NCBI GenBank assembly: GCA_044229975.1
Contig: JBGARZ010000025.1
Location: 88,714 to 152,713, forward strand
Source of the DNA: Polyangiales bacterium
Lineage (GTDB): Bacteria > Myxococcota_A > Polyangia > Polyangiales > Ga0077539
Direction of reading: 5' to 3'
Length of the DNA: 64,000 nucleotides
A model generated the notes under the pieces. That model saw only the letters and a list, made by a program, of their open reading frames with translations. It searched no databases and was not told where the DNA came from. Within the stretch, counting starts at the first letter, position 1, and every line of letters starts with the position of its first letter. This document shows, piece by piece, positions 6,065 through 23,017 of this stretch. Both the position numbers and the translations under genes were made by a program.

Positions 6065-6076
6065 GCTCGGAACGGA

Positions 6077-7248: not shown

Positions 7249-7260
7249 GCGGGCGTCGGG

Positions 7261-7443: not shown

Positions 7444-7467
7444 GGGTAGAGACCTCCTGTCCCCCTG

Positions 7468-7494
7468 CTAGCCGTTCGGGCGGCGGCCGTGACC
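7468..7494 (-). promoter_or_regulatory. Putative ECF promoter GGTCAC-N17-CTAG (copy 1)
   Basis: Same -35/-10-like elements and 17-bp spacer recur at 17949-17975 (-) and 18374-18400 (+); variant CTAA at 12059-12085 (+). Confidence 0.7.
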
Positions 7495-7534
7495 GACAAA
7501 GTGTCGCGCGGGCTGTTTCGGGCGTCGTGGTCGC

Positions 7535-8131
7535 CTACGTCGCCGGGGCGCAGGTGCAGTCGGCGCACCCGTCGTCCGCGCAGGACCCGCAGCAGGCCTG
7601 CACCCGCGCGCGGAGCGCCTCACGCGCCCGGAAGACCCGCACCGCGGCGTTGTTCGCGGTGATGCCCTCGGCCTCGGCGAAGTCCTTCACGCTCTGCCCC
7701 TCGACGGTCACCTGCCGGAGCGCCGCCGCGTACTCGGGCTTCATTGCGTCCGCCAGCCGCCCCACGCACGCGCAGGTGGTCGGCGCGAGGGCCGCCGGTG
7801 GCGGCGCCTCCGGCTCGTCCAGCTCCGCGGCCAGGGCGTCGAGCGCGCGGCCGTGGCTCGCGTCCCGGCGCCGACGGTCGATCACCGCGTTGCGCAGGAT
7901 CCGGTAGAACCACGCGCGCGACGACTCGTCCTGCCGGAGCGAGGCGCCGTGGGTCACGCTGCGGGCGTAGGCGTCCTGGAGGATGTCCTCGGCCGCGGCG
8001 CGGTCGCCGAGGCGGCGCTCCAGGAAGGCGAGGAAGCTCGCGCGCGCGGCGAGCAGCGACTCGGTGACGTGGGCGTCCACGGGCCGGAGTCTAGCGCCGG
8101 CGGCGGGTACGGAGGGGGTCACGGCGTCCAC
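7535..8131 (-). CDS. CorE-like metal-responsive ECF sigma factor with C-terminal Cys-rich domain
   Basis: AEDILQDAY, AWFYRILRNAVID, CxC (CAC) between regions 2 and 4, C-terminal CCGSCADDGCADCTC; start may be GTG 8080. Confidence 0.85.
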   Translation of the reverse strand: MDAVTPSVPAAGARLRPVDAHVTESLLAARASFLAFLERRLGDRAAAEDILQDAYARSVTHGASLRQDESSRAWFYRILRNAVIDRRRRDASHGRALDALAAELDEPEAPPPAALAPTTCACVGRLADAMKPEYAAALRQVTVEGQSVKDFAEAEGITANNAAVRVFRAREALRARVQACCGSCADDGCADCTCAPAT

Positions 8132-10470
8132 CGCCGCAGCCGAAGTGAGTTGAGCAGCACCGAGACGCTCGACAGCGACATCGCCGCGCTCGCGAAGACC
8201 GGCGAGAGCGACCAGCCCGTGACGGGTTCGAGTAGCCCCGCCGCGAGGGGGATGCCCACGAGGTTGTAGACGAAGGCCCAGAAGAGGTTCTGTCGGATCG
8301 TGCGCAGCGTGGCCCGCGCGAGCGCGAGCGCTGTCGGCACCGCCCCGACGCCGCCCCGCAGGATCGTCACGTCCGCGGCGGCCGCCGCGACGTCCGCGCC
8401 GCCGCCCATCGCCACGCCGAGGTCGGCCGCGGCCAACGCGGGCGCGTCGTTCACGCCGTCGCCCACCATCGCCACGTTGTGCCCCGCCGCGCGCAGCCGC
8501 GCCACCAGCACGGCCTTCTCCTCGGGGCGCACTTCCGCATGCACCTCGCCCACGCCCGCGGCGCGCGCGACCGTCAGCGCCGTCGCCCGCCGGTCGCCCG
8601 TCGCCATCGCCACGGAAACGCCCATCGCCGTCAACGCGGCCACGGTCGCGGCGGCCTCGGGGCGCACCGTGTCGGCCACCGTCACGAGGCCCGCGAGGGC
8701 GCCGTCGATGGCCACGAACACGGGCGTCTCACCCCGGCCCGCGGCCGCGGCTGCGGCGGGCTCCAGCGCGTCGGCGGCGACCCCCTGCGACGCCAGCCAG
8801 CGGGCCGTGCCGACAGACACGAGAGACGCGCCGACGCGCGACCGCACGCCCCCTCCAGGGGTCGCCGTGAAGTCCGTCGCGGTGACGGCTGTCAGGCCCT
8901 GCGCGGCGGCGCCCGCGACGATGGCGCGCGCCACGGGGTGTTCGCTCCCCGCCTCTGCGGCGGCCGCCAGCGCGAGCAGCTCGTCGTCGCGGCGGCCGCC
9001 TACGGGGAGTACCCGCGCGAGGGCCATCCGGCCCAGCGTGAGGGTGCCCGTCTTGTCGAAGAGCACCTGATCGATCTTCGAGGCGCGCTCCAGGGCCTCG
9101 CCGCCCTTCACCAGCAGCCCGAGGGCGGCCGCGCGGCTCGTGCCCACGGCGACGGCCGCGGGCGTGGCGAGCCCGAGCGCGCAGGGGCAGGCGATCACCA
9201 GCACGGCGACGGCCGCGGGCGTGGCGAGCCCGAGCGCGCAGGGGCAGGCGATCACCAGCACCGCGACGAAGTGCTCGACCGCGGCGGCCAGTCCGTCGGA
9301 CCCGCGCGGGAGCACCATCCACGCGGCGAAGGTGAGTCCGGCGAACGCGACCACCGTCGGCACGAACACCGCGCTCACCCGATCGGCGAGGCGGGCGATG
9401 GGTGCGCGCGTGCCCTGAGCTTCGGAGACGGCGTCCACGATGCGCGCGACGGCCGACTCGGTGCCCCGGCGCGTCACCTCGATCACGAGGCTGCCGCCCT
9501 CGACCAGCGTCCCGCCCTGCACGGGGTCGCCGGAGCCGCGCTCCACGGGCACGCTCTCGCCCGTGAGCATCGACTCGTCCACAGCGGCCTGACCCTCCAC
9601 GACCGTCCCGTCGGTCGGGACGCGCTGCCCGGGTCGCACGCGTACCCGGTCGCCCGGGAGCAGGGAGCCCACCGTCACCTCGATCTCGGCCCCGCCCCGC
9701 AGGCGCGTCGCGCTCGGCGGCTGGAGGGCCACGAGGCCGCGCACCGCGTCCCCGAGGCGCCGACGCGCGCGCCGCTCCAGGGCCTTGCCCAGCAGCATGA
9801 ACGCGACGATCGCCCCGGCCGCCTCGAAGTACACCGGGACGTGGCCGTGCTCGCCGTGCGGGAGCAGGCGCGGCACGAAGGTCACCGCCGCCGACCAGCC
9901 CCAGGCGGTGAGGGCGCCGAGCGCGACGAGGACGTTCATGTCGGCGCTCCGGTGGCGCAGCGCCGCGACCGCGAGGCGGAGGAAGCGGCGGCCGGGGCCG
10001 AAGACCACCGCCGTCGCCAGTGCGAGCTGGAGGTAGCGCCCGGCGGCGCCCGCGGTCCCCGGGATCGCGCCGTGCGACATCCCGACGACCAGGAGCGGCA
10101 CAGCCAGGGCCGCAGCCACGATCAGGTCGCGCCGGTCGCGGCGGGCGTCGGCTTCTTCGGCGGCGTCGATGCGTGCGAGTCGGGTCGCGCCATCGGGCGG
10201 GGCCTCGCCCGCCGCGGGCACGTCGGGGACCTCGTAGCCCGCCCCGCGAATCGCCTCGGCGAGGGCCTCCGGGGCCGTCGCGGTGGGGTCGTAGTCGATC
10301 GTCGCGTGTTGGCTGGCGAGGTTCACCCGCGCGTCGAGCACGCCCGGGGCGCGCCCGAGCACGCGCTCGATGCGGCCGACGCAGGCCGCGCAGGTCATGC
10401 CGAGCACCGCGAACTGCACGCGCGTCGGGTCGGCGGGAAGGGACAGGGGGTTCGCGAGCGAGGATGTCAT
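8119..10470 (-). CDS. copA: Copper-translocating P1B-type ATPase
   Basis: N-terminal GMTCAAC, TGES, CPC, DKTGTLT, SEHP, GDGVNDAP, YN and MSLSS Cu(I) motifs. Confidence 0.95.
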   Translation of the reverse strand: MTSSLANPLSLPADPTRVQFAVLGMTCAACVGRIERVLGRAPGVLDARVNLASQHATIDYDPTATAPEALAEAIRGAGYEVPDVPAAGEAPPDGATRLARIDAAEEADARRDRRDLIVAAALAVPLLVVGMSHGAIPGTAGAAGRYLQLALATAVVFGPGRRFLRLAVAALRHRSADMNVLVALGALTAWGWSAAVTFVPRLLPHGEHGHVPVYFEAAGAIVAFMLLGKALERRARRRLGDAVRGLVALQPPSATRLRGGAEIEVTVGSLLPGDRVRVRPGQRVPTDGTVVEGQAAVDESMLTGESVPVERGSGDPVQGGTLVEGGSLVIEVTRRGTESAVARIVDAVSEAQGTRAPIARLADRVSAVFVPTVVAFAGLTFAAWMVLPRGSDGLAAAVEHFVAVLVIACPCALGLATPAAVAVLVIACPCALGLATPAAVAVGTSRAAALGLLVKGGEALERASKIDQVLFDKTGTLTLGRMALARVLPVGGRRDDELLALAAAAEAGSEHPVARAIVAGAAAQGLTAVTATDFTATPGGGVRSRVGASLVSVGTARWLASQGVAADALEPAAAAAAGRGETPVFVAIDGALAGLVTVADTVRPEAAATVAALTAMGVSVAMATGDRRATALTVARAAGVGEVHAEVRPEEKAVLVARLRAAGHNVAMVGDGVNDAPALAAADLGVAMGGGADVAAAAADVTILRGGVGAVPTALALARATLRTIRQNLFWAFVYNLVGIPLAAGLLEPVTGWSLSPVFASAAMSLSSVSVLLNSLRLRRWTP
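9145..9261. repeat. Perfect 57-bp in-frame tandem duplication of the CPC transmembrane segment of copA
   Basis: Units 9145-9201 and 9202-9258 are identical; the protein reads AVLVIACPCALGLATPAAV twice. Confidence 0.95.
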
Positions 10471-10497
10471 GGGATTCGGCTCCGGTTCGATCGGGCC

Positions 10498-10523
10498 GAC
10501 GCAGCAGGGCGGGCTGGATTACA
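10498..10523 (-). promoter_or_regulatory. Putative ECF promoter TGTAA-N17-CGTC upstream of copA-corE
   Basis: Same motif and spacing at 11746-11771 and 12106-12131; CGTA variant at 22977-23002. Confidence 0.72.
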
Positions 10524-10569
10524 GTCGTCGTTCGTCGAGGGCGCGCGGTGCAAAGCTGATGGCAGCAGC

Positions 10570-11112
10570 TCAGTGCGCGGCGCCGTGGGTCGGCGGCGCC
10601 GTCGAAGTGAGGCGCCGCCACGTGGGCTCGTCAACGACCTGCTGGCGCCACGCGGCGTGGCAAGAGGTGCAGGTGCGGAGGGTGGCGCCGAGCTCGGTCA
10701 CGACCCGCGCGCGGTCCCGCTCGCGGGCCGCGACGCCGATGCGATCGGCCGTGTGGTGGAAGTTGAGCGCCTGCTCGGTAAAGCCCGGCGCGCCTGCCCC
10801 CATGTGGCTGCACTTCCGGCCCATCTGCTCGGAGTAGCCGAGCTGGGCCGCCGCCCGCTCGATCGCGGGGAAGTCTTCGACGGCAAGCGCCGCAACGATC
10901 TCCTGCACGGCGACGAGGTGACCCCGCATGTTCTGCTTCTGGTGGTTGGCCATCATTGGCAGCAGGGGAACGGCGTTGCGAGTGTCGAGGCGATCGAGCG
11001 CCTGCTGCGCCGACGGCTCGACCGGCGCGGCGGGCGCCGCGGCTCGAAGCCCCTCGGGCGCGCAGCCGGCGGCGGCGAGTGCGGCGGCAAGCAGCAGGAT
11101 CGTGCGGGTCAC
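10570..11112 (-). CDS. Lipoprotein c-type cytochrome (helical, cytochrome c'-like)
   Basis: Lipobox AAGC; single C-terminal CxxCH (CTSCH). Confidence 0.75.
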   Translation of the reverse strand: MTRTILLLAAALAAAGCAPEGLRAAAPAAPVEPSAQQALDRLDTRNAVPLLPMMANHQKQNMRGHLVAVQEIVAALAVEDFPAIERAAAQLGYSEQMGRKCSHMGAGAPGFTEQALNFHHTADRIGVAARERDRARVVTELGATLRTCTSCHAAWRQQVVDEPTWRRLTSTAPPTHGAAH

Positions 11113-11594
11113 TCTGTTTCCCCTTCGCCCTCGGAGGCCACAGTGGCAGGCAGCGCGTCGAGGGCGGCGACGAGGTGCCCCAGGGCCTCGACGACCTGAT
11201 CACGCCGTCCCTTGGGCACGGCAGCGAGCAACGCGCTGAACCGCGCGCCGCTGGCGACCTCGACCTCCCTCGCGAGAGTCTGACCGCGCTTCGTCAGGGT
11301 CACCCTCCGGCTGCGGGCGTCGTTCGCGTCCGCGTGCTGCCTGACATGGCCCGCCTCCACCATCTTCGCGCAGAGGCGGGCGACATTGCTCTTGTCGATG
11401 CAGAGCTCAGCGCCGAGGTCGCGCTGCGACACTTCGCCCTTCGAGAGCAGCACCATCAGCGCGTGCGCGTGCGCCACCGGCAGCGGCTTGCCGCACGGCG
11501 TCCGGTCGGTCGCGAGGGCGCCGAAGCGTCGAAACAACCGCTGCATGAGGCGGCGGAGCTCATCGGACTCCGCCATGTCAGGAGCCTTCGACAT
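11109..11594 (-). CDS. MarR family transcriptional regulator
   Basis: wHTH: SQRDLGAELCIDKSNVARL...DARSRRVTLTKRG; exact start uncertain (11576-11633). Confidence 0.88.
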   Translation of the reverse strand: MSKAPDMAESDELRRLMQRLFRRFGALATDRTPCGKPLPVAHAHALMVLLSKGEVSQRDLGAELCIDKSNVARLCAKMVEAGHVRQHADANDARSRRVTLTKRGQTLAREVEVASGARFSALLAAVPKGRRDQVVEALGHLVAALDALPATVASEGEGETE

Positions 11595-11617
11595 CGTGGC
11601 CGTGTCCGTAGTCGCAA

Positions 11618-11637
11618 ATGGTTGCGGTCGCAACTAT
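11618..11637. promoter_or_regulatory. Putative MarR operator palindrome
   Basis: ATGGTTGCG-GT-CGCAACTAT immediately upstream of the marR-like gene. Confidence 0.5.
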
Positions 11638-11745
11638 ATCAGCACGGTCGTCTTCTCCCCTTGGGATGGCGAGCCTGTCGCAGCCATGAGCTGGAGTTCC
11701 GTCATCGCCAACGCCCTCCGCCCGCGCCTGTGATGTCGATGCGGC

Positions 11746-11771
11746 TGTAAGGCGAGGAGGGGGACTGCGTC
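11746..11771 (+). promoter_or_regulatory. Putative ECF promoter TGTAA-N17-CGTC upstream of copZ
   Basis: GCTGTAA-ggcgaggagggggactg-CGTCTGCC. Confidence 0.72.
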
Positions 11772-11819
11772 TGCCTTGGTGCGAGCCGAAGCAACGCGGC
11801 CCGCAGGAGCGACGAAGCC

Positions 11820-12044
11820 ATGAACCCCACCGAGACCCTGCTCGACGTCCGCGGCATGAACTGCGGGTCGTGCGTCCGCCACATCTCCGAGGCCCTCGAC
11901 GCGCTCGACGGCGTCGAGGAGGTCTGCCCCTCGCTGCCCGACAAGACCGTTCTCGTCCGGCACGACCCGGCGCGGGTGAGCGCCGAGCAGCTCGCCGACG
12001 CGCTCACCGCCCGGGGCTACCCCGCCGCCGCGCGTGCCGCGTGA
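11820..12044 (+). CDS. copZ: HMA-domain copper chaperone
   Basis: 74 aa with GMNCGSC metal-binding motif; AGGAG RBS upstream. Confidence 0.9.
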   Translation: MNPTETLLDVRGMNCGSCVRHISEALDALDGVEEVCPSLPDKTVLVRHDPARVSAEQLADALTARGYPAAARAA

Positions 12045-12054
12045 ATCGACTCCG

Positions 12055-12101
12055 ACCGGGTCACAGGTCGGCCGCCCGGCCCTAAGAGCCTGTGACCCGG
12101 T
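12055..12101. repeat. 13-bp inverted repeat (possible copZ terminator or operator) overlapping a GGTCAC-N17-CTAA promoter-like motif
   Basis: ACCGGGTCACAGG (12055-12067) pairs with CCTGTGACCCGGT (12089-12101). Confidence 0.65.
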
Positions 12102-12105
12102 TCGC

Positions 12106-12131
12106 TGTAATCCCCACCCACCACGCGCGTC
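12106..12131 (+). promoter_or_regulatory. Putative ECF promoter TGTAA-N17-CGTC upstream of the lipoprotein-TolC-MCO operon
   Basis: GCTGTAA-tccccacccaccacgcg-CGTCTGCC. Confidence 0.72.
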
Positions 12132-12147
12132 TGCCGCCACGAAGCCC

Positions 12148-12408
12148 ATGAACCTCTTGATCCCACGCGTTCTCATCCTGGTCGGTGTGACCGCCCTCCC
12201 GCTCGGGTGCGGAGGACGCGAGGTGCCTGTGCGCTTCGGCGAGCAGTCCGCCCTCTCGTCGGGCGCTCGTGAGGCGCCGGTCGCTGACCCCACGGTGGCC
12301 CTCGCGGGCGACCCGCCCCTCCCGGGCGAGCCCACCGGGGCCTGGTCCGGCCTCGCGGCGGACGCGGGCGCCCCCCCTACCGGAGGAGGCCACGTCCATG
12401 CGCACTGA
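12148..12408 (+). CDS. Small lipoprotein with C-terminal His tail
   Basis: MNLLIPRVLILVGVTALPLGC signal/lipobox; ends GGGHVHAH; overlaps the TolC start. Confidence 0.6.
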   Translation: MNLLIPRVLILVGVTALPLGCGGREVPVRFGEQSALSSGAREAPVADPTVALAGDPPLPGEPTGAWSGLAADAGAPPTGGGHVHAH

Positions 12409-13828
12409 GCGCCTCCTGCCGGCCGCCTTGGCGCTGCTGCTGCCGCTCACCGGGTGCGCGACGACGTCGTTCTCCTCCGATCTGCGGCGCGTCGAGCAGC
12501 TCTCCCACTCGCCCATCCCCCTACGCGTCGCGGACAACCCCCCCGAAGACCACGACCCGGCGGTCACGCGGGAGGTCCTCGCCCGCCCGCTCACGGCCGA
12601 CGCCGCGGTGGGGGTGGCCTTCCGCAACAACCGGCACCTGCGCGCGTCGCTGCGCGATCTCGGCGTAGCGCGTGGCTGGCTCGCCCAGGCTGGCACGCTC
12701 CCCAACCCCGCCATCGAGTTCGACGTGCGCTACCAGACTGACCGCTCGCAGCCCCTCCAGGGCGACGTGCGCCTGGAGTTCGGGCTGACGCGAGCGATCC
12801 TCACGACGCAGCGGGCGGGCCTCGCGCGGGCGGAGCTGGAGACGGCGCAGGCGCGCGTCGCAGGGACGGTGCTGGAGACGGGCTACGCGGTGCGCGTCGC
12901 CTTCTACGCGGTGCAAGCCTCCGAGGAGCGGCTCGCGGCCGCCCAGCAGGCGCTGGACGCCTTCGCGGCTGCGCGTGACGCGGCCCGCGCGCTCCACGCG
13001 GCGGGCAACATCAGGACACTCGACCTCTCGGTGCAGGAGGCGGCCTACGAGACCGCGCGCATCACGGTGGCGGAGATCGAGCTGGAGCGACTCGACCGCC
13101 GCGAGCACCTCCAGCGCCTGTTGGGGCTCCACGGCGACGCCACCGAGTGGACCCTCGCGGAGAGCCTACCCCCCGCGCCCGAGGCCCTCTCGCTGGAGGC
13201 GATGACCGAGACGCGCGCGCTCGAAGCCAGCCTCGACCTCGCGGCCCAGCGCGCGAACCTCCAGGCCCTCGCCCGGCGCGTCGGCCTCAGCCGGGCCGAG
13301 GGGTGGCTGCCCGACATCACGGTGGACGCGCACGCCGAACAAGACGGCAACTCCGTGGAGGTCGGCGGCGGGGCGCGTGTCACGCTCCCGATCTTCGACC
13401 AGCGTCGGGGGGCCACGGCCGCCTATGGTGCGCAGTTCGACGCCGCGCTTGAGCGCTACTACGCCAGCGCCGTGGACCTGCGCTCAGCCCTGCGCTCGGC
13501 CCGCAACCGCCTGCGCTCGGCGCACGCCCGCACACGGCAGTACGACGCCGTCATCGTACCAGCGCGCGAGCGTGTGCTGCGCGAGACGCTGCTCCAGTAC
13601 AACGCCATGCAGGTCTCGGTCTTCCAGCTGCTTGAGGCACGGCGCGAGCTGCTCGACGCCACGCTCCGCCGCGCCGAAATCCGCCGCGAGTTCTGGACCG
13701 CCACCGCGGGCACCGTGGCCCTCTTCGCCGGGCGCCAGGTGGGCGCGGCGGAGCACACATCCGATGCCACCGAGTCCATGTCCGCCACGTCCATGGGCGC
13801 GAGCGGTGCGTCCGCAGGAGGCCATTGA
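12398..13828 (+). CDS. TolC family outer-membrane protein (copper-resistance type)
   Basis: Lipobox LTGC, GTLPNP, LPIFDQRRG, YNAMQVSVFQLLEARRE; GGAGG RBS. Confidence 0.87.
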   Translation: MRTERLLPAALALLLPLTGCATTSFSSDLRRVEQLSHSPIPLRVADNPPEDHDPAVTREVLARPLTADAAVGVAFRNNRHLRASLRDLGVARGWLAQAGTLPNPAIEFDVRYQTDRSQPLQGDVRLEFGLTRAILTTQRAGLARAELETAQARVAGTVLETGYAVRVAFYAVQASEERLAAAQQALDAFAAARDAARALHAAGNIRTLDLSVQEAAYETARITVAEIELERLDRREHLQRLLGLHGDATEWTLAESLPPAPEALSLEAMTETRALEASLDLAAQRANLQALARRVGLSRAEGWLPDITVDAHAEQDGNSVEVGGGARVTLPIFDQRRGATAAYGAQFDAALERYYASAVDLRSALRSARNRLRSAHARTRQYDAVIVPARERVLRETLLQYNAMQVSVFQLLEARRELLDATLRRAEIRREFWTATAGTVALFAGRQVGAAEHTSDATESMSATSMGASGASAGGH

Positions 13829-13832
13829 AACC

Positions 13833-15194
13833 ATGAACCGACGATCCTTTCTCCAAGCGGGCAGTGCGGCGACTGCGCTGGGGCTCATGACCCGTGCGGA
13901 GCGGGCGGAGGCGCAGACCCACGAGGGTCACGGCGCGCCCGATGCCCCGGCGACGGGGCAGACACCACCGCCGCCAGCGACCTCCGCCGCGATCGCACGT
14001 CGCTTCCCCGCGGGGCAGCCCGGAGTGACGGTGCCGAACGGGGGCACTCTCCCTCTCCGCCTGGTGGACGGGGTGAAGGTCGGCCACCTGGTGGTCGAGG
14101 CGTTCCCCAACGAGTTCGCGCCGGGGCTCACCGCGGAGGTGTGGGGCTACAACGGCACGACGCCGGGACCGGTGATCGAGCTGGTCGAGGGCGACCGTCT
14201 GCGGATGTACGTGACCAACCGGCTACCCGAGCCGACGACGGTGCATTGGCACGGCATCGTTCTGCCCAATGGCATGGACGGCGTGAGCGGCCTCAACCAA
14301 CGCCCCATCCCGCCGGGCGAGACGTGGATGTACGAGTTCACGCTCCGGCACCCGGGCACGTTCATGTACCACTCGCACTTCGACGAGATGACCCAGATCG
14401 CGCTCGGCGCGGTGGGCATGATCGTCGTCCACCCGCGCCAGGCGCGCGGCCCGCGGGTCGATCGGGACTTCGTGCTGATGGCGCACGAGTGGAAGATCGA
14501 GGCGGGTGCTCACCGCCCCGACCCCAACGCGATGAACGACTTCAACGTCCTCACCTTCAACGGCAAGGCGTTCCCGAGCACGGCGCCGCTGCTCGTGGGG
14601 AAGGGCGAGCGGGTGCGCATCCGCCTGGGCAACCTCGGGCCGATGGACCACCACCCGATCCACATCCACGGCCTCTGGTTCCACGTCACGGCGACCGACG
14701 GCGGCTACGTGCCGGCGAGCGCGCAGAAGCCCGAGACGACGGTGCTGGTGCCGGTGGGAGCGACGCGGGTGATCGAGTTCGTGCCGCCCGAGTCAGGCGA
14801 CTGGGCGATGCACTGCCACATGACCCATCACGTCATGATGCAGATGGCTCATGGCCTGCCGAACATGGTGGGGATGAACCCGGCGGCGTTGGAGCGACGC
14901 ATGAGCCGGGTGATGCCCGAGTACATGACCATGGGGCACAGGGGCATGGGCGGCATGGGCGAGATGCGGATGGAGATCCCGCCCAACAGCGCCCCGATGC
15001 GCGGTGGCATGGGGCCGCACTCGTACATCGACATGGGCGGGATGTTCACCATCCTGAAGGTGCGCGACGACGTCACCACCGCCGACCCGGCGGGGTGGTA
15101 CCAGGCGCCCGCCGGGACGGTGCCCACGGCGGCACAAGAGGCGCGGCTGCGGGCTGACGGCATCGACGTGGCGCGGACCTATCGGCCGGGGTGA
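13833..15194 (+). CDS. Tat-exported multicopper oxidase with Met-rich C-terminus
   Basis: MNRRSFLQ twin-arginine signal; HWHG, MYHSH, HPIHIHG and HCHMTHH copper motifs. Confidence 0.92.
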   Translation: MNRRSFLQAGSAATALGLMTRAERAEAQTHEGHGAPDAPATGQTPPPPATSAAIARRFPAGQPGVTVPNGGTLPLRLVDGVKVGHLVVEAFPNEFAPGLTAEVWGYNGTTPGPVIELVEGDRLRMYVTNRLPEPTTVHWHGIVLPNGMDGVSGLNQRPIPPGETWMYEFTLRHPGTFMYHSHFDEMTQIALGAVGMIVVHPRQARGPRVDRDFVLMAHEWKIEAGAHRPDPNAMNDFNVLTFNGKAFPSTAPLLVGKGERVRIRLGNLGPMDHHPIHIHGLWFHVTATDGGYVPASAQKPETTVLVPVGATRVIEFVPPESGDWAMHCHMTHHVMMQMAHGLPNMVGMNPAALERRMSRVMPEYMTMGHRGMGGMGEMRMEIPPNSAPMRGGMGPHSYIDMGGMFTILKVRDDVTTADPAGWYQAPAGTVPTAAQEARLRADGIDVARTYRPG

Positions 15195-15264
15195 GTGGGC
15201 ACGATGCGACGCATGGTGAGCTCAACCGCTACGGGCCTGTCGATCGCTCGCGGTCCGCCGGGCC

Positions 15265-15753
15265 TCAGCCGACGCGCCTCATGCGTTTTGCGTAGATGAC
15301 CTTGTCGTCTCCGTCTGCGTAGAAGTCCGGCACGCGTCCGCACGCGGAGTACCCGTGCTTCTCGTAGAAGCGCCGCGCCCGCGCCGTCGGTGGCAAGGCG
15401 CTCGTCTCGATCACGAGAATCCGACCACCCCGGGTGCTCACTTCTGACTCGACGGAGCGCAACAGCGCATCGCCGATGCCCTGACCGTGATGGGCAGGGG
15501 CCGCGCCGATCCACCAGAGGTCCCACACGCGGTCGGCCTTCTCGTTCGAAGAGAAGTACGCCCATCCGAGCGGCGGTCAGGCCGGACCCTCGGACCACAC
15601 CCACGCCAGATGATCGGGACCCAAGCGACCGGCGTGAATCTCATCGAGCGTCGCCCTGAGCAGGAGGTCCGCTTCGTCGGCTTGGAAGAGCCCGGTCGAA
15701 ACGGCCAGCGAGACCAGGGCGGGTGTGTCGTCGGGGGCAGCGGGGCGCATCAT
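15265..15753 (-). pseudogene. GNAT acetyltransferase interrupted by an in-frame TGA at 15577-15579
   Basis: The two ORF-track fragments are in one frame: ...WSEGPA*PPLGWAYFS...WIGAAPAHHGQGIG...RRFYEKHGY. Confidence 0.8.
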
Positions 15754-15858
15754 GGCCGCGACTACGGAACCCAATCACCGGCAGTTACACGCGATCGCTG
15801 CTTGGAGTCGCGTGGTGCGCCGAGACGATCGCGGGAGGGCCCTACCGACAGGGGCCAG

Positions 15859-16443
15859 TCAGGGAAGGACGCGGACCACGCCCGCCATCCCGACGTGTCC
15901 GTGGGTGTTGCAGTAGAACGGGTAGAACCCGGCGCCGGGGAAGGTCACCGCGTAGGTCGTCCCCACGCGCTGCGCGTCGATGGGGCTCGGGGTTGTGGCG
16001 CCCGCGCTCGACCCGTGCGGCACGCCGGGGATCAGCGGGTGCGTGGTGAAGCTCATCGAGAAGGTCACCGACTGCCCGGTACGGATGGTGAGACAGCGCG
16101 GCGTGTAGCCCGTGGTGCCGCGGGGTACCACCGTGCGCTCGGCGTCGTCGGCGCTGCGGTCTACGTAGTTCGCGGCCCGGCAGTCGTTGAGCAGGGGCAC
16201 TACCGTCGAAGCGTCCGCAACTGTCCCCGCGTCGGTCGCGGCATCCTGGTCGGTGGTCGCGACGTCGACGGCTGTCGGCTGGTCCGTGGCGGTGCCGACG
16301 TCGGTCGTCCCAACGTCCGAAGTCCCGACGTCGGCCGCGTCGTGACCCTCGTGGGCGGCCGCGTCGGTCGTGTCGTGTGCCATGTCGCCGCAGCCGGCGA
16401 ACAGAGGAAACAGGGCGAGGACGAGGGTCATTCGAGCGGGCAT
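15859..16443 (-). CDS. Lipoprotein with C-terminal plastocyanin/cupredoxin (type 1 copper) domain
   Basis: Lipobox FAGC, Asp/Thr-rich linker, His...YCNTHGHVGM ligand set. Confidence 0.85.
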   Translation of the reverse strand: MPARMTLVLALFPLFAGCGDMAHDTTDAAAHEGHDAADVGTSDVGTTDVGTATDQPTAVDVATTDQDAATDAGTVADASTVVPLLNDCRAANYVDRSADDAERTVVPRGTTGYTPRCLTIRTGQSVTFSMSFTTHPLIPGVPHGSSAGATTPSPIDAQRVGTTYAVTFPGAGFYPFYCNTHGHVGMAGVVRVLP

Positions 16444-16478
16444 CGAGGGGCCTTTCCGGTGCGCAGTGGGGTCGTGGC

Positions 16479-17903
16479 TCAGGGCTCCACGCGGACGGTG
16501 GCCATCATCCCGTGCTCGATGTGCTCAAGGATGTGGCAGTGGTACATCCAGTGGCCGGGGCGCTCGTCGGGGCGGAACGCGATGCGCACCCGCTCCTTGC
16601 CACGCAGCTGGATCGTGTCCTCCCACGAGCGCTCGGCCTCGTCCGCGCCGTTGCGCGACACGACCTGGAAGAAGAACCCGTGCAGGTGGAACGGGTGCTC
16701 CATCTCGCTCGCGTTGACGAGGTCCCACACCTCGGTGTTGCCCACGCGCGCGACGACGTCCGGCACGTCCGGGTAGGACCGGTCGTTGATGGTGAACACC
16801 ACCTGCTCGCGGTCGCGATCGATGTACTCGTTGAAGGTCACCGTGCGCGGCGCGATGCCTGCCGTGACCAGCGGCTCGACCCGTATGCGGGGCGCGGGGG
16901 CGGCGAGTGTTGGCAACGCCGAGTCGGGCGCGTAGCGGAGCCGCAGGACGTCCGCCGCCTCGGTGAGACCAGCGCCGTGGCCGCGGGCGTAGGGGAGGTT
17001 GCGCAGGGGCGCGGTCGTGCCCGGGCTGCCGACGCCGTCCACCAGGACGTCGAGGCGATCGCCAGGGACGAGAAAGAGCTCGTCGGACGTGCGTGGTGTC
17101 GCGACGGACCCTCCGTCGGTCCCCACCACGGTGAAGCGGTGCCCCGGGAGAGCGAGGCGGTAGAAGCGGGCGCTGCCGGCGTTCACGACGCGCCACCGCT
17201 GCCGCTGGCCCGCGCGGATCGGCAGCTCCGCGCCCGCGCGTCCGTTGACGAGCGAGACGGGACCCTCCCTGCCGCTGTGCTGCTCGACGAGGTCCCCGGT
17301 GGGCGCGATCTCCCCGTCCGACCCGACCAGGAGGTCGTCGAGCATGACGACGCCCTCGACGTCTGCGCGGGGTTCATGGTCGCCGCGCACCACGACCGCG
17401 CCGTAGAGGCCGCGCTCCATCTGTACGCTCTCGGTGACGTGCGGGTGGTACCAGAAGGTCCCCGCGTCCGGAACGGTGAAGCGGTACTCGAAGCTCGCGC
17501 CGGGGGCGACGGGCGGCTGCGAGTGGGGGCTGCCGTCCATCGACGCAGGCACCCGCACGCCGTGCCAGTGGATCGTCGTCGGCTGGTCGAGCCGGTTGGT
17601 GAAGTGCACGACCACGGTGTCCCCGGCGCGCGCCTCGATCGTGGGCCCGGGGACCATGCCGTTGTAGGTCATCGCTCGGACGCGCCGACCCGGCGAGTAC
17701 TCCCACTGACCGAAGCGCGCTTCGAGGTCGATCTCGACGACGCGCGGATCGGGGTTGCGGTCGGCGGCGGGCTCGACGCGGAGCGCCGCGGCCCAGGGGT
17801 CGGGGCCGGTGCGAGGCGCAGGCGGTGCCTCGGGGGCGTCGCCGCAGCCGACAGCTACGAACAGCGCGGAGAGGGTCCAGCGGAGGTGGGGCGCGAGAGG
17901 CAT
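16479..17903 (-). CDS. Three-domain multicopper oxidase (CueO/Cuo-like lipoprotein)
   Basis: HWHG, WYHPH, HPFHLHG, HCHILEHIEHGMM; lipobox AVGC. Confidence 0.93.
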   Translation of the reverse strand: MPLAPHLRWTLSALFVAVGCGDAPEAPPAPRTGPDPWAAALRVEPAADRNPDPRVVEIDLEARFGQWEYSPGRRVRAMTYNGMVPGPTIEARAGDTVVVHFTNRLDQPTTIHWHGVRVPASMDGSPHSQPPVAPGASFEYRFTVPDAGTFWYHPHVTESVQMERGLYGAVVVRGDHEPRADVEGVVMLDDLLVGSDGEIAPTGDLVEQHSGREGPVSLVNGRAGAELPIRAGQRQRWRVVNAGSARFYRLALPGHRFTVVGTDGGSVATPRTSDELFLVPGDRLDVLVDGVGSPGTTAPLRNLPYARGHGAGLTEAADVLRLRYAPDSALPTLAAPAPRIRVEPLVTAGIAPRTVTFNEYIDRDREQVVFTINDRSYPDVPDVVARVGNTEVWDLVNASEMEHPFHLHGFFFQVVSRNGADEAERSWEDTIQLRGKERVRIAFRPDERPGHWMYHCHILEHIEHGMMATVRVEP

Positions 17904-17948
17904 GGTCCTCGGTCGGTTTTGGGGTTGGCTTGCACGCCGCCCGACCTA

Positions 17949-17975
17949 CTAGCCGCCAGGGCCGGAGGTGTGACC
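17949..17975 (-). promoter_or_regulatory. Putative ECF promoter GGTCAC-N17-CTAG (copy 2)
   Basis: Upstream of the MCO-cupredoxin operon. Confidence 0.7.
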
Positions 17976-18053
17976 CGCGTCGCTCCACAACGCGCACTTT
18001 GCGCCTCGTCTCAAGCCTTGAGCGCGCTCTCCCGCCGCGCGAGTATCGACGCC

Positions 18054-18326
18054 ATGTCGCTCGCTCCTCACGCTCACCTGCTCACCTTCTACGGCGCGGC
18101 CCTCAACGAGTTCGGCATGCCGAAGGACTTCCACCGCTACCAGATCTTCGTCGGCCCCCTCGTCGTGACGGGAGGCACCGTGTACGTGGCATCCATCGCC
18201 GCAGCGACCGACAGCCCGACGCCAAACCCGAAGGAGTACTCCTCCAAGGCCGACACGACCGACGCGTTCGAACAGGCCAGGCGAGCGCTCGCGGCGCTCC
18301 ACCCTGGTCTGACCTGCGTCGGCTGA
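18054..18326 (+). CDS. Hypothetical protein (90 aa)
   Basis: ATG-started ORF with GC3-rich codons between two divergent promoters; no recognised family. Confidence 0.5.
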   Translation: MSLAPHAHLLTFYGAALNEFGMPKDFHRYQIFVGPLVVTGGTVYVASIAAATDSPTPNPKEYSSKADTTDAFEQARRALAALHPGLTCVG

Positions 18327-18373
18327 CGTCACCGGTGGTCCGCGGTCCGTCCTCGGCAAAGTGGCTCTGGACG

Positions 18374-18400
18374 GGTCACGAAACGTCGCGGCGGAACTAG
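18374..18400 (+). promoter_or_regulatory. Putative ECF promoter GGTCAC-N17-CTAG (copy 3)
   Basis: Upstream of the MNIO precursor operon. Confidence 0.7.
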
Positions 18401-18460
18401 ACAGGGATCCGCCGAAGTACCCGCGGCCGTCCGCCGCGCGCCCGAAGGAGCGAAGACCTG

Positions 18461-18892
18461 ATGAACAAAGAGACCCGAGCGAAGTTGCTGGTGATGGTAT
18501 CCGCGGCCTTTGGGGTCGCCGCGGTGGAGGGCTGCGCGAGCAACCCGTCCATGATGGCGCAGCCGCCCGCAAGCTCGCAGTCGGCTGACCCCGCACCCGC
18601 CACGACGCCTGCGCCCGCCGCGCAGGTCGGCACCGGTCCGACGCAGACCCCGAGCTCGACGGCCCCTGCGCCCGCCTCGGCCCCACAGGGAGCGGCCACG
18701 GGTCAGGCCATGAGCTGCGGCCAGGACGGCAACTGCGGCGCGCACATGGGCTCCTCGTCGTCGCCCGCACCGGGCACCACGGCGGCCCAGCCGACCCCGA
18801 CGGCGGCCCCGACGCCGGCCACCACACCGACGACGGCTCCCGCCACGGCTCCAGCAACGGCGCGGCCCCACCAACACAACCACGCACACTGA
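18461..18892 (+). CDS. Putative MNIO-modified RiPP precursor (lipoprotein-like, SCGQDGNCG core)
   Basis: AAGGAG RBS, signal with VEGC, Pro/Thr/Ala-rich linkers flanking MSCGQDGNCGAHM, His tail; 3 bp before the DUF692 gene. Confidence 0.75.
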   Translation: MNKETRAKLLVMVSAAFGVAAVEGCASNPSMMAQPPASSQSADPAPATTPAPAAQVGTGPTQTPSSTAPAPASAPQGAATGQAMSCGQDGNCGAHMGSSSSPAPGTTAAQPTPTAAPTPATTPTTAPATAPATARPHQHNHAH

Positions 18893-18895
18893 TCG

Positions 18896-19729
18896 ATGGC
18901 GCACGTCGAGGGCGTCGGCCTGGGCCTGCGGGCCCCGCTGTTTCGCGACCTGATGTCGCGGGCGCCCGCGGCGTTGCGCTGGGTCGAGGTCTCTCCCGAG
19001 AACCATCTCGGGCGCGGCGGCTTCTTCGAGGCGATGCTGGCGGAGACCCGCGCGCGCTACCCGGTGGTGACGCACGGCGTAAGCCTCGGGCTCGGCGACC
19101 GCGAGCCGCCAGCGCGCGACCTGCTGCGCGCGATGCGGGGCTTCCTCGAAGCCGTGCAGACCCCCTGGCACAGCGATCATCTGTGCTTCGGCGCGGTCGA
19201 CGGCGCCCACCTCCACGACCTCCTTCCCCTACCGTTGACCGAAGAGAGCGTCGGTCGTGTGGTGGACCGGGTTCGGCTGCTCGAAGACGCGCTCGGTCTC
19301 CCCATCGCCGTCGAGAACATCTCCTGGTACGCGCACCCCGGCGAGGCGGAGATGGACGAGGCCGACTTCCTCGGCGAGATCACCGCGCGCAGCGGCGCCC
19401 TCCTCCTGCTCGACGTCAACAACGCCTACGTCAACGCGCGCAACCGCGGGGGAGACGCGCGGGAGTTCATCCGTCGCATCCCGGCCGACCGTGTGGTGCA
19501 GATGCACGTCGCCGGGCACCTCGTGGCCGCCGACGGGTTTCGCCTCGATACGCACGGCGAGGCTGTCTGCGACGATGTGTACGGGCTGCTCGCGTACACC
19601 CTGTCGCGCACTGGGCCCGTGCCGGTTCTGTTGGAGAGAGACGGCGGCTTTCCCCCGTGGGACGAGCTCGTCGCGGAGCTCGAACGACTCGACGCCATCG
19701 TCCGCGCTTCAACACAGGCAGCGCCTTGA
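18896..19729 (+). CDS. DUF692 family multinuclear non-heme iron oxidase (MNIO)
   Basis: GVGLGLR, EVSPEN, HGVSLGLG, SDHLC, DLLPLP, ENI, LLDVNNAYVN, MHVAGH, DTHG and LLERD motifs. Confidence 0.95.
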   Translation: MAHVEGVGLGLRAPLFRDLMSRAPAALRWVEVSPENHLGRGGFFEAMLAETRARYPVVTHGVSLGLGDREPPARDLLRAMRGFLEAVQTPWHSDHLCFGAVDGAHLHDLLPLPLTEESVGRVVDRVRLLEDALGLPIAVENISWYAHPGEAEMDEADFLGEITARSGALLLLDVNNAYVNARNRGGDAREFIRRIPADRVVQMHVAGHLVAADGFRLDTHGEAVCDDVYGLLAYTLSRTGPVPVLLERDGGFPPWDELVAELERLDAIVRASTQAAP

Positions 19730-20457
19730 GCGGGCTCGACGCGCACCAGCGGGCCATCGCCCGGCTCACACTTGGGGCCGAACTCGACGAGGCGTCGCTG
19801 GCCTCGCTAGGCGGCGACCGCGTTCGGTGGCTGGTGTACCGCGACCTCGTGCGCAACCGGCTCTGGTCGCTGCTGCTCGAAGCGCTGCCGCGCACCTTCG
19901 CGGCGGCCGGCAGCGCGCGCTTCGGGGGGTGGTTTACCCGCTACCTCGACGAGGAGGCGCCGCGCACGCACTTCGTCCGCGACGTGGCGCCGGCCTTCGG
20001 TCGGTGGGTGCGCGCGGCGGAGGCCGAGGCCCTGGCGTCACCGTCGCCGTGGCTGCCCGAGGCGCTGTCCCTCGACCTGGCCGAGCATCACGTCGGCCTC
20101 TCGGCAGCGCGCGTCGACGCATCGCGACTCACCGACTTCGCGATGGACCTCCCCGCGGCGCTCGATCCGACACACCAGCGGCTGCGCCTCTCGTGGACCC
20201 CGGAGGGCGCGCCCGATGCGCGGGCACTGCTGCTGTTTCGTCACCCGGAGCGCCACTCTGTGGAGACGCTCGCGCTCACCCCGATGGCGGCCGACGTGCT
20301 CGACGCGATGGACGACGGGGCGACGCCCGCGGCCGAGGCCGTGCGCGCGGTGCTGGCACGCTACGACGTGGTCGCGGGGTCGGCGTTTGTGGAGAGCTTC
20401 GCGGGCCTGCTCGCCGAACTGATGGAGCGCGGTGTCTTGAGGGGCTCGCTGCGGTAG
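19726..20457 (+). CDS. DUF2063-like MNIO partner (RiPP recognition) protein
   Basis: TTG start overlapping the MNIO stop; YRDLVRNRLWSLLLEALPRT and PWLPEALSLDLAE resemble DUF2063. Confidence 0.8.
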   Translation: MSGLDAHQRAIARLTLGAELDEASLASLGGDRVRWLVYRDLVRNRLWSLLLEALPRTFAAAGSARFGGWFTRYLDEEAPRTHFVRDVAPAFGRWVRAAEAEALASPSPWLPEALSLDLAEHHVGLSAARVDASRLTDFAMDLPAALDPTHQRLRLSWTPEGAPDARALLLFRHPERHSVETLALTPMAADVLDAMDDGATPAAEAVRAVLARYDVVAGSAFVESFAGLLAELMERGVLRGSLR

Positions 20458-20461
20458 GGCG

Positions 20462-20815
20462 TTACATGGCGTGGCGGAAGGCCGTGAGGTCGACGCGCAC
20501 GCGGGTGTCGTTGCTCACCTTGAGCCGCAGCAGCGCCGGAACGCCGATCCCGTAGTCGGTGGGCGACAGGTTGGGAAGGTCGACGGTGAAGCGCCCGGCG
20601 GTCGAGGTGGAGATGCCGTCGACGGTTTCGAGCGGTGCGTCGGAGGTGAAGAGTACGCGCGACTCGCCGTTCGTGCGGAGGTCGAAGCGCTGCACGCCGG
20701 TGGGCGCGGCGGCGGGCGCCATGGTGGGAGGCGTCGGCGGTGTCTACGCGCCGAGCGGAGCGGACATCGAGAGGAGACTGATCGCGACGAGCGAAGCGAG
20801 AGGGCTGATCTTCAA
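20462..20815 (-). pseudogene. YceI family protein, nonsense codon plus apparent internal deletion
   Basis: GGAGGT RBS, signal peptide, in-frame TAG at 20744-20746; SDAPLETVDG joined almost directly to DYGIGVPALLRLKVSN. Confidence 0.65.
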
Positions 20816-20859
20816 GGGCGACCTCCGACGGTCTTGGTGGTGGGCGCGGTCGACGTCCG

Positions 20860-21483
20860 TCAGCGTACGTGGGTGAAGACGAAGTCCCGCGGGGCGCTCA
20901 CGTGGCAGCCGACGCAGATGGTGCGCGCGGGGCCGCTCGTGCCGAGGCCGTCGGCGACGTAGCGGGTGCCGATGCGCTCGAACCAGTACCAGTTCTCGCC
21001 CCCGGTACCGACCGCGACCTTGAGGTAGACGGCGTAGCCGGTGACCACGCCCGCGCTGGAGAGCAGCTCCTTCACGGCGGCCGCGCCGACGGGGTAGGGG
21101 CCGTCGCCGCTCGACCCGCTCAACAGCTCGTTGGAGCAGATGCGGTTGATGCCGTGAGGCGACGGCGAGCGCGACGCGTGCGGTGCGGGCTCACAATGCC
21201 AGGAGCGGTAGTGCCCCGCCGTGAGCCATGCTTCCATGTCCACGCGCCCCGAGGACGGCGGCGTTTGGGGCCCGACCATCGGCGGTGGAGACTGACCCGC
21301 GTCCGTCGGAGCGCCGACCTCGGTGACCGCGGACTGATCGATCGTGGCATCCGCGTATCTCGCCGACGAAGCATCGATGGTCTGTGTCGGAACGTCCGTC
21401 GCGATCGTGCCATCGGCTGTCCCGCAGCCCACGGCCAGCAACGCCAGCGCCCCGGCTGCCAACACCCTTCGTCGATCAACCAT
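20860..21483 (-). CDS. Lipoprotein c-type cytochrome, cytochrome P460-like
   Basis: Lipobox AVGC; YPVGAAAVKEL, GYAVYLKV, WYWFE and C-terminal CVGCH. Confidence 0.7.
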   Translation of the reverse strand: MVDRRRVLAAGALALLAVGCGTADGTIATDVPTQTIDASSARYADATIDQSAVTEVGAPTDAGQSPPPMVGPQTPPSSGRVDMEAWLTAGHYRSWHCEPAPHASRSPSPHGINRICSNELLSGSSGDGPYPVGAAAVKELLSSAGVVTGYAVYLKVAVGTGGENWYWFERIGTRYVADGLGTSGPARTICVGCHVSAPRDFVFTHVR

Positions 21484-21943
21484 TGGCGCGCGCCGCCTCG
21501 GTCACCGCGGTGTCCGGGTGCACCATGAGCTCGCCCGCGGCGACGGTCACCCGGTAGTGCGGCAGGGTGGCGGTGGATGGCGCTCGCGTCACGGCCCCGT
21601 TGCCGTCGTACTCCGAGAAGTGGTTGGGGCAGCGGGTGTTGCCCGTCGTGCTGACGGAGGTGCAACCCGTCGGTGTCGCACACGCCGCGCCGTCGCGAAA
21701 CGCGATCTCAGTCCCCTCGTGCGTACACAGCGTCGAGTAGGCGAAAAAGCCTCCGGCGTCGCGCCCCACGATCACCTTCTGCGCGGCGTACAGCTTCCAC
21801 ATCCCGACGGCGTGATCGGCCACGCGCCCGCCGCTGAAGGGCGTCGTCGGCATTGCCGCGTCGCCGCAGCCCACGGTCACGCCCGCGACCCCCAGCACAC
21901 ACAGGAACGTCCTGCGCTCCAAGCGCTTCGTGTCTTCATCCAT
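21476..21943 (-). CDS. Rieske [2Fe-2S] lipoprotein (Tat)
   Basis: RRTFL signal, TVGC lipobox, CTH...CPNH motifs. Confidence 0.85.
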   Translation of the reverse strand: MDEDTKRLERRTFLCVLGVAGVTVGCGDAAMPTTPFSGGRVADHAVGMWKLYAAQKVIVGRDAGGFFAYSTLCTHEGTEIAFRDGAACATPTGCTSVSTTGNTRCPNHFSEYDGNGAVTRAPSTATLPHYRVTVAAGELMVHPDTAVTEAARANG

Positions 21944-21971
21944 GTTGGTTCTTCCTCGTCGCGTGTCGCGG

Positions 21972-22955
21972 CTACGGCGCGACCATCGGGCAGTTGACGG
22001 TGACGGGCAGAGGACCGGCCACGTTGGCGAGCGCCGTGTTCCAGTCGCGCACTCCGCCGAAGCCCGCGAGGTTGCCCCGCTGATGCGACCACAGCGACGA
22101 GTACCCGGGTTGTCCCGGCAGCACCTGCACCACGTTGTGGGTCATGCCGTCGGCCTCGGTCTCAAAGCCCATGGAGGGGTCCGTGTCGTTGCGGAAGATC
22201 ACGATGATGCCCGCGCTCGGGACGCGCCCATTGGCGGTCACCTGGAGGTTGGTCTCGAACTGCATCAGCGGCGCGATCATGCCGCGCACCCAGCCCCGGA
22301 ACCCGGTGACCACGTTGCCCTGAAACCGCAGGGTCGCCGTCGAGCCCGCGGGCACCACCGCCCAGTCGACGATGCGCGTGGTGAGCGTTGCGGTGGCGTC
22401 GCCCTCGGCCACAGCGGCCAGTACGTCGGCTTCGCTCGTGAGCGAGTTGACGTTGTAGCCCTCGTGCGTGCGCACCTCGGTGATGCGCATGAAGTCGTTG
22501 TACCCGGTGTCACCCGGGACGCCCGTGAGCACCGGGAGCTGCCCCGGGATGGCTTGTCCGTTGGCGTCGAGGATCATGTACGCGCGGCCGGGCACCACCG
22601 GGACGATGTCGAGCGAGTAGTACAGGACGCGCTCGCCGCCTGGTCCGAACGAGCGCACGCCGAAGAGCTGATCGAAGTGGATGGGCGCGTTGGGCGCGGG
22701 CACGACCGGTCGCACGTTGGCCGTGTCAAACGCGGGCGCGCTGCGCTTGAAGAGCGTCGCGAAGCTGTCCTGGAAGCGGTCGACGGACACGATCGCCGCG
22801 GTGTCGGGGTTGACCGTCGCGCGGTCGGACGTGGTTCCACAGTGCGCGAGGAAGACCGAGAAGCCTGCGAGGCAGAGGGCGTGGCGCGGCGATCGAAGCG
22901 TGGGCGTGGCACACATCGGAGAGGGGACACCTTCGGTGTTCGCGGGGCTCTCCAA
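21972..22955 (-). CDS. Hypothetical lipoprotein with internal repeat
   Basis: LAHC lipobox; related segments VPGDTGYNDFM and LPGQPGYSSLW; ends VNCPMV; start may be ATG 22916. Confidence 0.7.
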   Translation of the reverse strand: MESPANTEGVPSPMCATPTLRSPRHALCLAGFSVFLAHCGTTSDRATVNPDTAAIVSVDRFQDSFATLFKRSAPAFDTANVRPVVPAPNAPIHFDQLFGVRSFGPGGERVLYYSLDIVPVVPGRAYMILDANGQAIPGQLPVLTGVPGDTGYNDFMRITEVRTHEGYNVNSLTSEADVLAAVAEGDATATLTTRIVDWAVVPAGSTATLRFQGNVVTGFRGWVRGMIAPLMQFETNLQVTANGRVPSAGIIVIFRNDTDPSMGFETEADGMTHNVVQVLPGQPGYSSLWSHQRGNLAGFGGVRDWNTALANVAGPLPVTVNCPMVAP

Positions 22956-22976
22956 TGAGCGTCGCGTGCCGACGTC

Positions 22977-23002
22977 TACGAGCGCGCGCGCTGACGGTTA
23001 CA
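22977..23002 (-). promoter_or_regulatory. Putative ECF promoter TGTAA-N17-CGTA
   Basis: GCTGTAA-ccgtcagcgcgcgcgct-CGTA upstream of the lipoprotein-Rieske-cytochrome operon. Confidence 0.55.
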
Positions 23003-23017
23003 GCGTGTGTGGCGGTT

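Follow-up and report, generated by a model that had tools for sequence, protein, structure and literature searches.

To our knowledge, the CorE class is the only class of extracytoplasmic function (ECF) sigma factors known to sense metal directly. In Myxococcus xanthus, CorE controls a P1B ATPase, as well as an HMA protein and an operon encoding an outer membrane efflux protein (OEP) and a multicopper oxidase (MCO), and corE itself lies inside one of the target operons (PMC3107203). A putative CorE-binding motif was proposed by Gomez-Santos 2011 before copB, MXAN_3424, copA and MXAN_3427, with AAC in the -35 element and G in the -10 element 16-18 nt away, and rests on four promoters of one genome (PMC3107203). 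The two hallmarks of group ECF44 are a linker CxC motif and a C-terminal Cys-rich domain (PMC4937300; PMC6851896). The main text of Todor 2020, in the sections available, mentions neither ECF44 nor ECF238, the group into which ECF44 has been placed (PMC7776599). Here, a stretch of 64,000 nt from a Polyangiales bacterium (GCA_044229975.1, contig JBGARZ010000025.1, positions 88,714 to 152,713; referred to as the window) that carries a CorE-like ECF sigma gene was analysed for the element TGTAA-N17-CGTC, which an initial annotation had proposed as the recognition motif of this sigma factor.

The island in the window resembles the M. xanthus regulon (PMC3107203) in its sigma factor with a CxC motif and a Cys-rich domain, in the gene types behind the three exact sites, which are the same as the targets of CorE, and in the position of corE within a target operon. 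It differs in that corE follows copA rather than the oxidase gene, that the genome holds three CorE-like genes and that position 6 of the motif is G or T. Taken alone, the window gives an ordinary result, a CorE regulon organised as in M. xanthus; the addition made here is a cross-phylum consensus. A motif before the same gene types had already been proposed in 2011, so that the idea of a CorE promoter is in itself not new, and the AAC/G geometry described then is compatible with TGTAAC-N16-CGTC and may represent the same motif. No statement of the TGTAA-N17-CGTC consensus was found in the literature, with subscription papers, figures and the ECF Hub lying outside the coverage.

The CorE-type motif and its probable sigma factor

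The three TGTAA(G/T)-N16-CGTC sites of the window (Table 1) are most probably (estimated probability about 0.87) -35 and -10 elements read by the adjacent CorE-like sigma factor, which would activate copA-corE, copZ and lipoprotein-OEP-MCO upon binding a metal, probably Cu(II). The motif was scanned as TGTAA-N17-CGTC, equivalent to TGTAAN-N16-CGTC, both exactly and with one mismatch. Exact matches were confirmed at the three positions named in the initial annotation, for which its extended form CTGTAA-N16-GCGTC(T/G)GCC is also valid, and the one-mismatch CGTA form was confirmed at a fourth position (site 4). Three exact matches compare with a mean of 0.05, and none of 100 first-order Markov resamples reached three. 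The six one-mismatch matches, compared with a mean of 4.63 and reached by 28 of 100 shuffles, are not above chance, and the CGTA site is therefore not significant by count alone. Each exact site is oriented toward its gene unit, the ATG of which lies 16-48 nt past CGTC.

Across the genome (10.0 Mb), the exact motif occurs 13 times with the 17-nt spacer and 4, 5, 0 and 12 times with spacers of 15, 16, 18 and 19 nt. The raw count at 17 nt is not above that at 19 nt, and the count was rejected as a test; yet the sites are clustered, so that the signal lies in their location and not in their number. Ten of the 13 fall in three clusters (C27, C29 and C31) where the three CorE-like sigma genes of the genome are found (100%, 95% and 78% identity), and the remaining three are more than 10 kb from any sigma match. 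A position weight matrix (PWM) derived from sites in foreign genomes placed nine of its top ten genome matches inside the same three clusters. Sites 2 and 3 recur in the C29 paralog and in loci L138 and L139 of G385. At G000:C27:122021-122086, an overlapping, back-to-back pair of CorE-type sites would drive lipoprotein-OEP-MCO and cupredoxin-copA-corE.

The foreign loci were the best 80 of at least 242 confirmed CorE-like sigma relatives in GTDB. According to the record titles they represent about eight phyla: Myxococcota/Deltaproteobacteria, Acidobacteriota (the majority), Nitrospirota, Planctomycetota, Verrucomicrobiota, Elusimicrobiota, Fibrobacterota and Pseudomonadota. TGTAA-N17-CGTC was found 83 times, distributed over 70 of the 80 loci, every other spacer from 10 to 25 nt yielding 1-9 sites, and 78 sites were observed within 3 kb of the sigma gene versus 1-3 in 10 resamples. 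Of 38 clusters formed at 70% identity, 29 contain the motif, and of 17 formed at 60%, 15 do. When 5+4 dyads around the sigma gene were enumerated without a seed and with the three closest loci excluded, the motif ranked first, in 63 of 77 loci. The 77 foreign sites give the consensus cTGTAA(G/T)-N16-CGTC(A/T)GC, followed by a pyrimidine at position 9 after CGTC in 71 of the 77 and a purine at position 10 in 76; both are present in all three window sites, whose predicted +1 positions were inferred from this step. A pyrimidine-purine step is the -1/+1 start signature of ECF promoters (PMC7776599), and the motif has the bipartite -35/-10 structure, the spacer within 16-18 nt and the step at the start that characterize such promoters.

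This structure bears on the alternative that the motif is not a promoter but an operator of a non-sigma regulator, such as the MarR protein or the BlaI/CopY repressor. Genes of both families are present on the island, and the back-to-back pair on C27 can resemble a palindromic operator. However, the motif is non-palindromic and bipartite, with a fixed spacer and the start step at a fixed distance, it accompanies the sigma gene from phylum to phylum, and a scan of positions 5600-23500 found no sigma-70-type promoter. An operator is accordingly a very unlikely explanation.

Relative to the sigma gene, 32 of the 83 sites lie at most 600 bp upstream, five are divergent and 27 lie at most 150 bp downstream (64 of 83 together), and in 13 of the 27 downstream sites the -35 box overlaps the TAA stop codon of the sigma gene. 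This overlap, together with the 85-95% identity of the paralogous C29 and C31 islands, could indicate that the pattern is an artefact of the CTG-TAA stop of the sigma gene or of local duplication. Such an origin is largely refuted and retains almost no probability, as the boxes are constant while the spacer sequences differ between sites, 37 sites are upstream or divergent and away from any sigma stop, and the motif persists in the distant clusters defined at 60% identity. Genes downstream of the motif in the foreign loci encode P1B ATPases and HMA, YHS, cupredoxin and DUF4396 proteins. In the Nitrospira loci L054 and L061 (and similarly L070, L072, L073 and L078), the motif downstream of the sigma gene would drive a His-rich DUF4396 membrane protein, Pfam having been run on two of the six.

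Twenty further loci, picked by hand, held 22 sites in 11 loci; among the nine misses, six showed near variants (CGTA, CGTT, CGTAAT, TGTCAT or an 18-nt spacer) and three showed nothing. Divergent CorE-like paralogs with a different Cys tail (L090, L092, L093, L095, L096, L111, L114 and L117) carry the motif with an 18-nt spacer, and the more divergent paralogs tend, as judged from these sequences, to favour that spacer. Co-occurrence at the genome level was tried with a 12-base pattern, which matched 138 of 401 genomes, compared with 56 of 401 that had a CorE-like match, and was discarded as uninformative as a count owing to many control matches. Among 150 listed matches of this pattern, inspection by eye gave 15 genomes in which a site and a CorE-like match were no more than about 11 kb apart.

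A further line of evidence comes from a known target of CorE2. Published primers show that corE2 of M. xanthus ends in CTG TAA, with CGTCAG shortly downstream (PMC4937300). MXAN_5264 heads a Cd/Zn-induced, CorE2-dependent two-gene operon that is transcribed apart from corE2 (PMC4937300), so its promoter must lie at the corE2-MXAN_5264 junction. A metagenome scan for both half-sites with a free gap of 4-24 nt returned one contig, L105, which in a by-eye comparison agrees with the covered corE2-region primers save for single mismatches. This Myxococcus-like locus carries TGTAA-N17-CGTCAG 34 nt before a cation-efflux gene, the ortholog of MXAN_5264. L105 belongs to a relative and not to the studied M. 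xanthus strain, and a different gene follows the transporter. The CorE2/MXAN_5264-5265 system (PMC4937300) is similar in that both half-sites occur in the primers flanking the junction and are joined at a 17-nt spacer in the near-identical L105, and different in that CorE2 has Cys174 (Cd/Zn type) where the window sigma factor has Ala.

The window sigma factor contains PF04542 (sigma2) and PF08281 (sigma4) over cut-off and no other domains; its best NCBIfam match, SigZ, is below the cut-off of that family. The linker CxC (C120-A-C122) is invariant in 30 aligned homologs, and CxC is present in 80 of the 80 loci. The C-terminal Cys domain comprises C180, C181, C184, C189, C192 and C194, of which C184, C189, C192 and C194 are invariant and C181 nearly invariant in the same alignment, and the spacing of this tail equals the spacing read from the CorE primers. 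The residue that corresponds to the Cys of CorE2 is Ala185, as in CorE, which by analogy (PMC4937300) points to a Cu type rather than a Cd/Zn CorE2 type. The neighbourhood is metal-related, with copA, copZ, OEP, MCO and RND genes adjacent. These features make it likely that the window sigma factor belongs to the ECF44 clade, now within ECF238. The next membrane protein comes after a second ECF gene and is present in only 2 of the 80 CorE loci; an anti-sigma factor may be encoded elsewhere.

By extension from M. xanthus CorE, Cu(II) would bind the CxC motif and the Cys-rich tail and render the sigma factor active without an anti-sigma factor. The holoenzyme would then start transcription 10 nt after CGTC, at about 10488, 11781 and 12141, and the output would be an exporter together with a chaperone and a periplasmic oxidase, as well as further sigma factor. 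The position of corE at the end of the copA unit would create positive feedback, and reduction to Cu(I) would switch the sigma factor off and end the pulse.

Several points weigh against this reading. The strict motif is missing from 10 of the 80 loci and from 9 of the 20 further loci, some of which have variants, and L106, L107 and L109 show neither motif nor variant within about 9 kb. The 80 loci are best matches only and are dominated by Acidobacteria. In L105, CGTC overlaps at spacers of 14 and 17 nt, so that a 17 would be expected by chance in about 2 of 21 permitted gaps, and its -35 box runs into a stop codon. The PWM gives L105 (-2.3) a score as low as that of site 4 (-3.2) and alone does not separate site 4 from the CorE sites. 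Finally, the 2021 reclassification describes the predicted target promoters of ECF238 (ECF44 plus ECF24) as not conserved and the group as not autoregulated (PMC7826278). The proteins sampled here share with that group the Cys-rich linker and tail and the role in metal homeostasis, and may share the lack of an anti-sigma factor, but the CxC-bearing clade sampled here has a conserved motif, often upstream of the operon of the sigma gene itself, which conflicts with the 2021 statement. Nevertheless, the proposal that the motif is the recognition element of the CorE-like sigma factor is supported for the three CGTC sites, through the family-wide association, the PWM, the dyad enumeration and L105, and is probably wrong for the CGTA site. 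If correct, the consensus and its predicted starts would allow CorE regulons to be predicted in uncultured Myxococcota, Acidobacteriota and Nitrospirota, and the one-protein, metal-switched pair of sigma factor and promoter would be usable for biosensors.

Table 1. Positions of promoter-type sites and genes in the window, and of example Cys-rich reading frames in foreign loci
Feature	Position	Strand	Remarks
CorE-type promoter site 1, TGTAAT-N16-CGTC	10498..10523	-	before copA-corE; predicted +1 10488, ATG 10470; foreign-site PWM rank 10 genome-wide
CorE-type promoter site 2, TGTAAG-N16-CGTCTG	11746..11771	+	before copZ; predicted +1 11781; PWM rank 2
CorE-type promoter site 3, TGTAAT-N16-CGTCTG	12106..12131	+	before lipoprotein-OEP-MCO; predicted +1 12141, 7 nt before ATG at 12148; PWM rank 8-9
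CorE-like ECF sigma	7535..8131	-	overlaps copA stop
Cu-type P1B ATPase CopA	8119..10470	-	profile match
MarR gene	11109-11633		profile match
CopZ-like HMA metallochaperone	11820..12044	+	profile match
86-aa lipoprotein-like ORF	12148..12408	+	without Pfam match
Outer membrane efflux protein (TolC/OEP family)	12398..13828	+	profile match
Tat-exported multicopper oxidase	13833..15194	+	CuoB-like position in operon
Site 4, TGTAACC-N15-CGTA	22977..23002	-	likely SigF/ECF16-type promoter, not CorE-type; predicted +1 22967
Site-4 operon	20860..22916	-	DUF7482 lipoprotein 21972-22916, Rieske protein 21476-21943, CxxCH protein 20860-21483 (without Pfam match)
Second GTAAC..CGTA site, TGTAACT-N16-CGTA	15763..15789	-	before GNAT gene
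Second ECF sigma (6712-7248) and Cys-containing membrane protein (6141-6722, putative anti-sigma)	6141..7248	-	likely reader of GGTCAC motif
GGTCAC-N17-CTAG	7468..7494	-	before Cys-rich peptide, second ECF, membrane protein
GGTCAC-N17-CTAG	17949..17975	-	before second multicopper oxidase and cupredoxin
GGTCAC-N17-CTAG	18374..18400	+	before bufferin-like MNIO cluster
GGTCAC-N17-CTAA	12059..12085	+	in inverted repeat shortly before site 3; may be a second promoter; G385 locus L138 has identical site
Cys-rich ORF, foreign locus L037	9815-9910	+	examples are among L008-L079; also in L087, L098, L108
Cys-rich ORF, foreign locus L038	9830-9913	+	
Cys-rich ORF, foreign locus L019	9709-9849	+	
Cys-rich ORF, foreign locus L010	1529-1708	+	

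In copA, 57 bp of the CPC transmembrane helix are perfectly duplicated in tandem and in frame (region 9147-9261). The duplication, either real or an assembly error, was found neither in the C29 and C27 paralogs nor in L001 and L002. Contigs from RNA runs represent relatives only (best share 0.44) and yielded no transcription starts, and the duplication is neither confirmed nor excluded by them.

Cys-rich reading frames beside foreign sites

At 34 of the 83 foreign sites, in 34 loci, an open reading frame (ORF) of 24-69 residues with at least five Cys and at least 15% Cys was found within 130 nt after the motif, compared with 54 of 5000 random positions. These ORFs mostly have an AGGAG ribosome site and adjoin the CorE-like sigma gene, and they are short and Cys-rich (CxC/CC) in the manner of metallothioneins. 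A Pfam search of 22 of them gave a single match below cut-off (plant PEC metallothionein) and none over it, and in NCBIfam 0 of 20 matched. No such ORF follows the motif at window sites 1-3. In its first third, the ECF44 neighbourhood table lists no metallothionein and several acidobacterial sigma factors without metal neighbours (PMC4937300). A link between CorE and metallothionein was likewise not found in the literature, subscription papers and figures being outside the coverage.

Taken from sequence evidence, these associations lead us to lean towards the view that the motif is a family-wide promoter of anti-sigma-independent CorE-like metal sensors in about eight phyla, often autoregulated, and that its commonest direct target in the sample is a set of undescribed metallothionein-like peptides of 24-69 residues encoded beside the sigma gene. 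Such a peptide family would explain CorE-like genes that seemingly lack metal neighbours, and would suggest a feedback loop, with the peptide removing metal from the Cys domain of the sigma factor itself. The motif would also uncover small Cys-rich genes that family libraries miss.

The CGTA site and a probable SigF-type class

The initial annotation had treated site 4 as a variant of the CorE motif, an assignment that is probably wrong. Described patterns of ECF16 are the EcfF promoter and the family pattern tGTAACc-N16-CGAA (PMC3420878) and the SigF consensus GTAACC-CGTA (PMC7826278). Site 4 fits this GTAACC..CGTA/CGAA consensus of SigF/EcfF and, as GTAACC-N15-CGTA, groups with a class of genome sites: several matches of GTAACC-N14-17-CGTA lie directly before genes for MsrP, MsrA, DUF1223, YceI, cytochrome P460 and GNAT proteins, others lie before no evident gene, and TGTAACC is present in five of the six TGTAA-N17-CGTA sites of the genome. 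The single NrsF gene of the genome (NrsF/DUF1109, over cut-off) adjoins an ECF gene on C34, with TGTAACC-N17-CGAA upstream. The same site occurs at a paralogous lipoprotein operon on C19, a contig on which no CorE-like gene is found. Upstream of nine foreign homologs of the site-4 lipoprotein, GTAACC-N15/16-CGTA occurs in three and the CorE form in none.

Site 4 is thus probably read in trans by a SigF/ECF16-type sigma factor. The likeness to SigF-NrsF of Caulobacter and EcfF-OsrA of Bradyrhizobium lies in the site 4 pattern and in the ECF gene beside an NrsF gene, as far as these systems are described in the sources cited; the difference is that here the sigma gene is on another contig (C34) and the site upstream of it combines a 17-nt gap with CGAA. 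It is rather unlikely, though less so than the other alternatives considered here, that site 4 is also a CorE target or is shared by CorE and a SigF-type sigma factor. Its -35 core and spacer are the same as those of the CorE sites, with the pyrimidine-purine step at the same distance, C at position 6 is also found in L105, L116 and L125, and in L118 a CorE-like gene has a CGTA site some 500 bp upstream. Against this, the 80 foreign loci contain two CGTA sites at N17 versus 83 CGTC sites, and the TGTAACC class, the C19 operon, the retention of the GTAACC form in three of the nine lipoprotein homologs and the ECF-NrsF pair on C34 all argue for the SigF-type assignment. The PWM was tried as a decisive test for site 4 and rejected, because it penalises the position-6 C that L105 also has. 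The lipoprotein of the site-4 operon matches DUF7482 below a Pfam E-value of 1e-5 and over cut-off. The GNAT gene behind the second GTAAC..CGTA site of the window (15265-15789, minus strand) is apparently split between two frames.

The second ECF gene and other features of the island

GGTCAC-N17-CTA(G/A) occurs at seven genome sites, which are confined to C29 and C31, the pair of contigs with the second ECF gene, and is also present in relatives; this distribution makes it a likely candidate target of the ECF sigma factor at 6712-7248. The earlier suggestion of two parallel metal regulons is supported at the motif level by this second system and modified in one respect: with a SigF/ECF16-type site besides the CorE and GGTCAC motifs, the island probably reads three ECF codes.

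That the CorE-type motif is instead read by the second ECF, or by a sigma factor encoded elsewhere, is highly improbable. The second ECF is present in two of the three motif clusters, and the genome has 50 sigma region-2 matches in all; but the C27 cluster has the motif and lacks the second ECF, only 2 of the 80 loci contain a homolog of it, it has an upstream motif of its own, and the three exact sites outside the clusters are far from any sigma match.

The first gene of the second ECF operon is a 60-aa ORF (7261-7443, minus strand) with a hydrophobic N-terminus and repeated CC-x-PGSP, for which Pfam and NCBIfam gave no match. Downstream of this operon, window positions 1-6103 (minus strand) encode a BlaI/CopY repressor, an M56 peptidase and OEP-MFP-RND efflux genes. 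A bufferin-like MNIO (DUF692) cluster (18461-20457, plus strand) has a paralog on C19; here the GGTCAC motif stands in front of it, and not a SigF-type site. A scan for terminators returned one weak candidate and nothing above chance. Between copZ and site 3, an inverted repeat with an inner hairpin but without a U-tract (12056-12101) overlaps the GGTCAC-N17-CTAA site. A tyrosine integrase gene at 31882-33345 (plus strand) may mark a boundary of the island.

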